The position numbers and the translations under genes were made by a program. Below are positions 52,519 to 52,710 of a stretch of 64,000 nucleotides of DNA, one piece after another; position 1 is the stretch's first letter; the number at the start of each line of letters is the position of its first letter. Origin of the DNA: Octopus vulgaris (lineage: Eukaryota); contig OX597814.1 in assembly GCA_951406725.2 (NCBI GenBank), positions 142,538,001-142,602,000 on the forward strand, in the 5' to 3' direction. Below the pieces are notes generated by a model that had not been told where the DNA came from, searched no databases, and saw only the letters and a list, made by a program, of their open reading frames with translations.

Positions 52519-52521
<3 letters not shown>

Positions 52522-52709
52522 GGTCCCGGGTTGAGTCGGGGTTAACCACAGTAAATAAGGTACTCAATACATAGCAGAGTAAATTAATTTATTGTATAGA
52601 AGGAGCTTCTACAGGACTAGAACTGTTTCATTCAAATGAAATCATCAGGAAGCTTCCTGATGATTTCATTTGAATGAAACAGTTCTAGTCCTGTAGAAGC
52701 TCCTTCTAT

Positions 52710-52710
<1 letters not shown>
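52519..52710 (-). mobile_element. (TA)n-embedded palindromic hammerhead element, family C copy 2
   Basis: Perfect 116-bp palindrome 52595-52710 with no spacer (centre 52652/52653), unique tail 52519-52594, (TA)n both sides. Confidence 0.9.
52651..52701 (+). ncRNA. Type I hammerhead ribozyme motif (mirror copy on - strand at 52604-52654)
   Basis: AGCUUC-CUGAUGA-U-UUC-AUUU-GAA-U-GAA-ACAG-UUCUAGUC-CUGU-A^GAAGCU; cut after 52695. Confidence 0.88.

Follow-up and report, generated by a model that had tools for sequence, protein, structure and literature searches.

A stretch of 64,000 nucleotides from Octopus vulgaris (contig OX597814.1), referred to here as the window, contains a perfect palindrome with a hammerhead ribozyme motif on each strand, and the question raised by this locus is how a mirrored ribozyme comes into being and whether it constitutes an element of its own. 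A check of the sequence confirmed the original prediction of a spacer-less palindrome of 116 bp: positions 52595-52652 and 52653-52710 are exact reverse complements of 58 nt each, with a spacer of 0. The axis falls, as described, within the 5' strand of helix I, 4 nt before CUGA, at GGAAG/CTTCC (the slash marks the axis). When the 40 longest perfect palindromes of the 64-kb window were printed, this was the only one that did not consist of TA repeats. A T>G change at 52594, private to this copy, marks where it stops on the left. The features of the unit are collected in Table 1. Around it, three copies of an abundant SINE-like repeat, presumably an octopus SINE, are split by TA/CA tracts and flank the palindrome (49981-50400, 51370-51800 and 52948-53420). 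The window also holds a long trinucleotide array (53939-54560), a 23-bp tandem array (55022-56048) and, on the minus strand at 59864-60670, a fragmentary frame that we take to be a non-LTR retrotransposon endonuclease-like fragment.

Table 1. Features of the palindromic unit and of a second family copy (positions in the window)
Feature	Position	Strand	Basis or remark
(TA)n target, left side	52488..52518	.	sequence; TA/TG run by pattern in 97/99 sampled copies
PLE 'tail', on one arm only	52519..52594	-	between two putative reverse-transcription start sites
Tailed arm, element +1 to +60, with hammerhead	52595..52654	-	sequence, fold
Hammerhead of the tailed arm	52604-52654	-	cleavage predicted between 52610 and 52609
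Self-complementary AGCT, +1..+4 of the predicted transcript, common to both arms	52651..52654	.	centre is the symmetry axis
Tail-less arm, element +1 to ~+62	52651..52712	+	AT-rich end blends into target
Type I hammerhead motif	52651..52701	+	fold and sequence; predicted cut after 52695
Helix I	52651-52656 with 52696-52701	+	
Core	52657-52663	+	
Helix II	52664-52675	+	U.U closure
GAAA	52676-52679	+	
Helix III	to 52694	+	
(TA)n target, right side	52713..52742	.	sequence
Second family copy, other subfamily	22754..22950	-	both arms altered at N7 and loop II; 2-nt apex insert

The unit belongs to a large family. A search of the 2.8-Gb genome with 52519-52712 as query recovered it at full length and 99-100% in 40 of 40 scored candidates, and the 30 copies that were fetched were all near-identical, had equal ends and lay inside TA repeats. 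A 24-mer from the left (tail) part had 5,319 exact matches genome-wide and the spacer-less apex had 645, with 0 for the reversed control in each case. The genome therefore contains at least 5,319 tail ends, and the palindrome, given its 40 full-length candidates and 645 apices against none in the control, is not a product of chance. The perfect-copy query suggested that the axis had been inherited from one master, a reading that was overturned by a position-ordered sample (99 copies from the first 100 matches along contig C1), which avoids the bias of such a query. This sample comprised 59 short pairs (51 inverted pairs with other junctions and 8 with the perfect apex), one perfect apex with a cut arm, which brings the perfect apices to 9 of 99, 29 long copies and 10 copies without a recognised second arm within 330 nt; about 60 of the 99 were shorter than 250 bp. 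Most junctions were unique, copy by copy, yet in 27 of the 29 copies that could be read the two arms showed the same diagnostic subfamily letters in mirror image. Because the letters are mirrored while the junctions mostly differ, the inversion must be remade at every insertion, and the earlier proposal that it arises during insertion thus holds. A pattern search for a non-palindromic ancestor returned apex variants and one unrelated match (L077). At one locus (L172, G000:C1:40703065-40703415) two copies lie tail to tail over one TA repeat, the outcome of an insertion beside an earlier one. At several others (L070, L082, L084, L094, L141, L249, L265 and L269) the junctions carry repeated short templated inserts copied from the arms; presumably these are akin to polymerase-theta end-joining scars, which they resemble.

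The origin of the family became apparent from its longer members, and the unit in the window is almost certainly an inverted stub of a Penelope-like element (PLE). A protein search with the element's ORF gave 150 scored matches, the best hundred of them at 92-100%. Twenty stretches around protein matches were inspected for intact frames, and two of these (L223 and L225) contain intact frames, 722 and 718 codons long or 712 when counted from the first Met, which are immediately preceded by the hammerhead and the 76-nt left part, or tail. In the parent unit, a TATA box is followed by AGCT, hammerhead, tail, ORF and a long 3' UTR, and such units of about 5.1-5.5 kb stand in tandem (tandems or partial tandems at L221, L223, L229, L230, L232, L233, L235, L236 and L238). 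Insertions consist of a tailed end joined to an inverted tail-less end at all lengths from ~0.13 to >9 kb, the long ones following the plan of the unit in the window. In the subfamily of this unit, 109 arms continue into the promoter, and 4 of 12 stretches link it to the same ORF at 87-94%; positions 52519-52654 differ from a promoter-bearing parent arm (L290) at 1 of 136 positions. The unit in the window thus comprises the first 136 nt of the predicted transcript of an autonomous element, to which the first ~62 nt are joined once more; the tail is the segment that the parent carries between hammerhead and ORF. It has no promoter, since the TATA box falls outside. A PLE origin is therefore borne out by long copies leading to an intact reverse transcriptase (RT)-endonuclease ORF, and the idea of a distinct non-coding element had to be abandoned: among the inverted insertions of an autonomous Hydra-clade PLE, this is the shortest. 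With its promoter outside and its junctions mostly unique, the unit is not of the self-propagating non-autonomous kind, which has its own promoter and a uniform interior, and its head-to-head pairs, seen in the window and in the sampled short copies, are not the head-to-tail arrangement of retrozymes.

The encoded proteins agree with this origin. P0002 and P0003 contain YRDD and VY..C..YIG, as in a single ORF with a PLE-type RT plus a GIY-YIG endonuclease at the C-terminus; Pfam returned no direct RT or GIY-YIG match in either, homologues carry PF26215 and PF01541, and a second PLE is matched weakly over the full length (E=4e-4). Tandem pLTRs, an inverted 5'-truncated copy with a one-sided tail and a hammerhead in the pLTR are all found, as in endonuclease-bearing PLEs. 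Within these, motifs and a comparison by eye with alignments in the supplement of PMC8557442 point to the Hydra clade. DKT is present, DKG and GxKF/Y are absent, and RWR stands where RWK is expected. The linker reads CNCHDKTTC (CxCX5C), with CDLC and CMH for CxxC and CxH, which in this clade lie around conserved E and N; there is no CCHH motif, and the GIY-YIG core has, by eye, one cysteine only. Insertion into (TA)n, another Hydra trait, was recognised by pattern in 97 of 99 copies. Hydra elements tend to be 'generally short (<3 kb)', a tendency that is not diagnostic and that this unit of 5.1-5.5 kb departs from because its 3' UTR is long. The label 'Nematis' was rejected, as the portion of the PMC8557442 supplement compared here points to Hydra. 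An identity with Hydra-1_Obim was discarded on account of its different N-terminus and hammerhead, and an intact PLE in L184 (P0001) was dismissed as a partner, being a different, nested family.

This second PLE (L184:3400-6450, minus strand) is unrelated, has an open RT plus GIY-YIG frame with a DKG motif and sits at the junction of a long inverted copy; by eye, its 3' end shows a minimal hammerhead-like motif with U on both sides of helix II and C for U4. The 3' UTR of the octopus family, ~3 kb long, is largely made of subfamily-specific TA/TG microsatellite-like tracts (L187:6760-9630, L223:3460-6590), which means that the element carries its own target sequence; at L182, L191 and L196 it has received other elements. 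Many otherwise intact tandems (L221, L232-L238) have in common a frameshift between RT and endonuclease that leaves frames of 506 and 225 codons, which suggests a defective master spread in trans or copies dating from before the change.

Where the arms end gave the next clue. In 66 of 67 promoter-bearing arms the first base of a TATA-like box lies 29 nt before the A of AGCT, despite a spacer that varies between subfamilies. On this spacing, the A would be the transcription start (+1), or the start would lie one base earlier in the subfamily of the unit in the window; the predicted +1 is also the first base of helix I. Among 116 arm ends from 58 short copies, 37 were at +1, 70 downstream and 9 upstream. 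The count at +1 is inflated, as perfect apices score twice and microhomology was extended maximally, and the tally left out 41 of the 99 copies as long, unpaired or misparsed and included six corrected by hand. The axes of the sampled copies were not random relative to the hammerhead, in line with the original prediction. The tie to the ribozyme which that prediction had drawn stands to this extent, but the axis is better tied to the predicted 5' end of the RNA, which coincides with the start of helix I. That the axis coincides with the AGCT at positions +1..+4, counted from a predicted start site, seems to be a new feature.

A single extra base supports the proximity of an RNA end. Immediately before +1 and following ATATAT, the base was G in 35 copies, C in 8, A in 4 and T in 1 (n=48); in the parent this position is occupied by T, A or C. 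Of 328 matches that exclude GG, the first 100 had G and C in a ratio of 86:14. G preceded 16 of 22 arms starting at +1 and 6 of 21 starting at +2 (Fisher p=0.006, from a hand tally of 70 loci among the first 100 of 256 matches). Solo tailed copies pass from (TA)n through a G straight into +1 and, beyond the tail end, back into (TA)n (L271, L275, L280-L282), and their G comes from neither the target, the parent nor a second arm. Two loci (L246 and L249) carry the extra base on both arms, and many G junctions can be read from the opposite arm as well. A reverse transcriptase that runs off a capped RNA end leaves an extra base, as known from L1, and the G is what is expected as the mark of copying a capped 5' end. 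A literature search on cap copying by retroelement RTs returned no paper. Terminal-transferase activity could give the G instead, and an RNA end at +1 is implied either way.

These observations make it likely that the two arms are cDNAs made separately, each primed by one of the nicked strands of a TA repeat, which ran off the predicted capped 5' end of the element's RNA and annealed through AGCT. In this scheme, both nicked target strands would prime reverse transcription on sense RNA, and the protein of the element would start synthesis from two sites, one near +136 and the other within +60 to +70. When the copies of these sites at the extreme 5' end of the mRNA are used, both cDNAs would be short and end at +1, and the run-off ends would often have a C opposite the cap. 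Host end joining would then give variable junctions, and annealing of AGCT the spacer-less palindrome: two cDNAs ending at +1 have self-complementary AGCT ends, whose annealing yields exactly GGAAG/CTTCC, and in the subfamily of the unit in the window the base at -1 is A, so that the self-complementary end grows to six letters. The parent sequence at both outer ends is AT-rich and matches the TA target, reading ATAT after the tail end; TA-repeat targets also make a target-site duplication unreadable. The RNA serving as template would have to be uncleaved, as both arms extend across the cut site. In 1-4 nt after the predicted cut, 19 of 52 short copies showed small deletions or changes, always in one arm (13 tail-less, 6 tailed, 0 both; for example L095, L097, L101, L104-L106, L109 and the copy at 22754 in the window), for which RT slips, later mutation of the hairpin and sequencing error are alternative sources.

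The main competitor, in which a single cDNA (or an antisense template) loops back on itself close to helix I and serves to make the second arm, comes near the model published for PLE junction palindromes in the part of PMC3846280 used here, namely antisense-templated self-priming. It is also what the original prediction had proposed as snap-back DNA synthesis. It would account for the agreement of the arms in subfamily letters (27 of 29 copies), and local fold-back synthesis does occur, as shown by the short templated inserts at many junctions. The lengths of the arms speak against it. In the 58 short copies, the tail-less arm reached further 5' in 25, the tailed arm in 21 and both equally in 12; among 18 simple long pairs, judged by eye in 52 long stretches, the tail-less arm was longer in 7, the tailed arm in 9, and 2 were about equal. 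These long loci include L221-L240, chosen for their RT frame, so that the arm ratios are not those of a random sample, and the unequal short arms could be mimicked by apex deletions after insertion. The tail-less excess reaches ~4 kb, while the tail is missing from the tail-less arm; as each arm holds sequence absent from the other, neither could have templated the other. Loops of zero nt, or of one nt as in L246, are impossible to fold, and where they come with the extra base on both arms (L246) two molecules are needed. The extra G indicates the 5' end of a sense RNA and not an antisense template, and the cut-site lesions, though of unclear origin, were one-armed in 19 of 19 cases. Snap-back synthesis was therefore not borne out, and we regard self-priming as unlikely.

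Two further readings of the fixed axis are less probable than self-priming. In the first, helix I begins at a 3' splice site (YAG/CUUCC), and the cDNAs stop within a very short first exon that has GAG at its end. In all subfamilies CTTCC is indeed preceded by AG and a pyrimidine-rich stretch, and the intron end of D. virilis Penelope maps to helix I (PMC4209133). Only one extra base recurs, however, and the sequence before it varies; the TATA spacing suits a start site, the subfamily of the unit in the window would require an AAG acceptor, and the AG/CUUCC joint was not found in four presumed-RNA contig sets that cover the unit, which is a weak argument. Splicing is thus improbable, and a shade more so is a palindromic unit acting as a non-autonomous master that is transcribed by read-through and copied whole. 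For the latter speak the 645 spacer-less apices, the 30 near-identical copies with equal ends and a tail variant common to four perfect copies. The perfect apex occurs, however, in only 9 of 99 position-sampled copies, with most other junctions unique, and in several subfamilies, each with its own promoter-bearing parent; the common tail variant is also present in a copy with another junction (L128), and the unit has no promoter. An assembly or sequencing fold-back is the least credible of all and can practically be set aside. Hairpins are error-prone in sequencing, and the coverage evidence comes from contigs of the family as a whole. Against an artefact stand hundreds of copies whose outer ends are fixed while their junctions vary, an asymmetric tail that matches a known biological structure, and contigs from four independent runs of four studies that cover the apex bins; 1 of 32 listed contig pieces bridges the apex of another family member with at least 31 letters on each side. 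As a class, then, the palindromes are not assembly fold-backs. Dual priming on sense RNA remains the preferred explanation.

What the palindrome mirrors is a type I hammerhead motif of unusual build. The original prediction of a complete hammerhead on both strands stands in so far as each has the full core (CUGAUGA, GAAA and a GUA triplet) and three helices, with a cut predicted after 52695 on the plus strand; the conserved core and three helices are those of type I. Helix III has 4 bp and helix I reaches 6 bp if the AG of the opposite arm is counted. The prediction falls short at helix II, which has only 3 bp and is closed by U.U: in 345 of 346 arms, positions 10.1-11.1 are U.U instead of the G10.1-C11.1 pair. 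No Rfam model reached its gathering score in the window, and no hammerhead model was among the 76 matches at E<=10. In fold prediction, the ribozyme fold of one arm has -6.8 kcal/mol against a minimum free energy of -10.6, with an ensemble probability of 0.0003, and a free arm is predicted to favour other hairpins, one of them over the cut site. In the 346 arms, the common subfamily changes are confined to N7, loop II and loop III, all four falling within the 14 positions, out of 45, that are free to vary (p about 0.007), and no compensatory pair changes were seen. Their placement would fit selection on the hammerhead fold. Hammerheads of Hydra-clade PLEs are listed with this U...U core in the portion consulted of PMC8557442 (file S2), and related hammerhead motifs need a dimer or the PLE protein, according to the passages drawn on from PMC4209133 and PMC11167929.

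Once inserted, the palindromic stub is likely a dead-end product. Either strand of its 58-bp hairpin is predicted to fold at -98.3 kcal/mol, burying both ribozymes, so the suggested sequestration of the ribozyme would, if the unit is read through, find support in the model, and the hairpin dsRNA may plausibly be edited by ADAR or diced by Dicer. Taken together, the somewhat favoured view is that both strands prime on capped, uncleaved RNA and that the family thereby seeds mirrored ribozyme hairpins, possibly a source of dsRNA directed against itself. If this is true, the stubs record a missing step of PLE transposition, their run-off products give the start site to the base, and a few thousand mirrored hairpins, the perfect ones of 60 bp, are a built-in by-product. 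This natural record separates the models through its base-precise 5' limit, its extra G and arms that are not copies of each other; with intact ORFs, a defined TA target and a minimal template of 136 nt, the model is testable in a published in vitro system. The structure class itself is already known for PLEs, which limits the surprise, and the origin of head-to-head repeats with a one-sided tail is called undefined in the part of PMC8557442 available here. A literature search, with most subscription papers and Repbase outside its scope, found no description of the family, of a fixed start-site axis or of dual priming in PLEs.

Comparison with known systems places the family among the endonuclease-bearing PLEs. 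Their inverted insertions, as far as the compared sections of PMC3846280 and PMC8557442 cover them, likewise have head-to-head arms, a one-sided tail and a junction palindrome, with TATA/Inr-like motifs in the pLTR and AT-rich targets. The octopus family differs from these accounts in the fixed upstream limit of its junctions at the predicted RNA start, in the extra G, in the shortness of about 60 of 99 copies (<250 bp) and in a tail of ~66-76 nt against 30-40; its evidence favours two primings on sense RNA over the antisense self-priming put forward in the pertinent part of PMC3846280. With the Hydra clade, in the extracts compared of PMC8557442, it has in common DKT, the CxCX5C linker, CxxC and CxH, the lack of GxKF/Y, (TA)n targets, a text around RT3-RT4 close to Hydra-2_Amil and Hydra-1_Ajap, and a hammerhead core in which U precedes both helix II and GAAA. 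From the clade as portrayed in those extracts it is set apart by the 5.1-5.5 kb unit, the 3-kb microsatellite-rich 3' UTR, RWR for RWK, and thousands of young copies with tandems and intact frames.

The closest mechanistic counterpart is PAc, a Poseidon element of the green anole, for which both strands are nicked and extended in vitro on an uncleaved RNA template and two internal RT start sites bound the tail (PMC11167929, in the sections used). PAc resembles the octopus family in the hammerhead at the pLTR-ORF junction, the two tail-bounding start sites and the AT-rich targets. It belongs to another clade, its ORF starts inside the hammerhead, and its start sites, going by the same sections, are not homologous to the target, whereas both sites of the octopus family are AT-rich and match the TA repeat. 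Those sections do not deal with inverted products. Non-LTR retrozymes (bioRxiv 10.64898/2026.07.22.740005, as far as its accessible part goes) are also short non-coding PLE-derived units with a type I hammerhead. They form head-to-tail tandems, in contrast to the head-to-head octopus unit, which is without a second hammerhead in the same direction.

The octopus family can finally be set beside L1. In L1 twin priming, a single RNA is primed by two target strands, and microhomology joins the resulting cDNAs; full-length 5' ends carry an extra G, and the second priming takes place at a variable site, which leaves the 5' part inverted. Contrary to this, the two sites of the octopus family are fixed, and it is because both are fixed that the arms overlap in sequence and form a palindrome.
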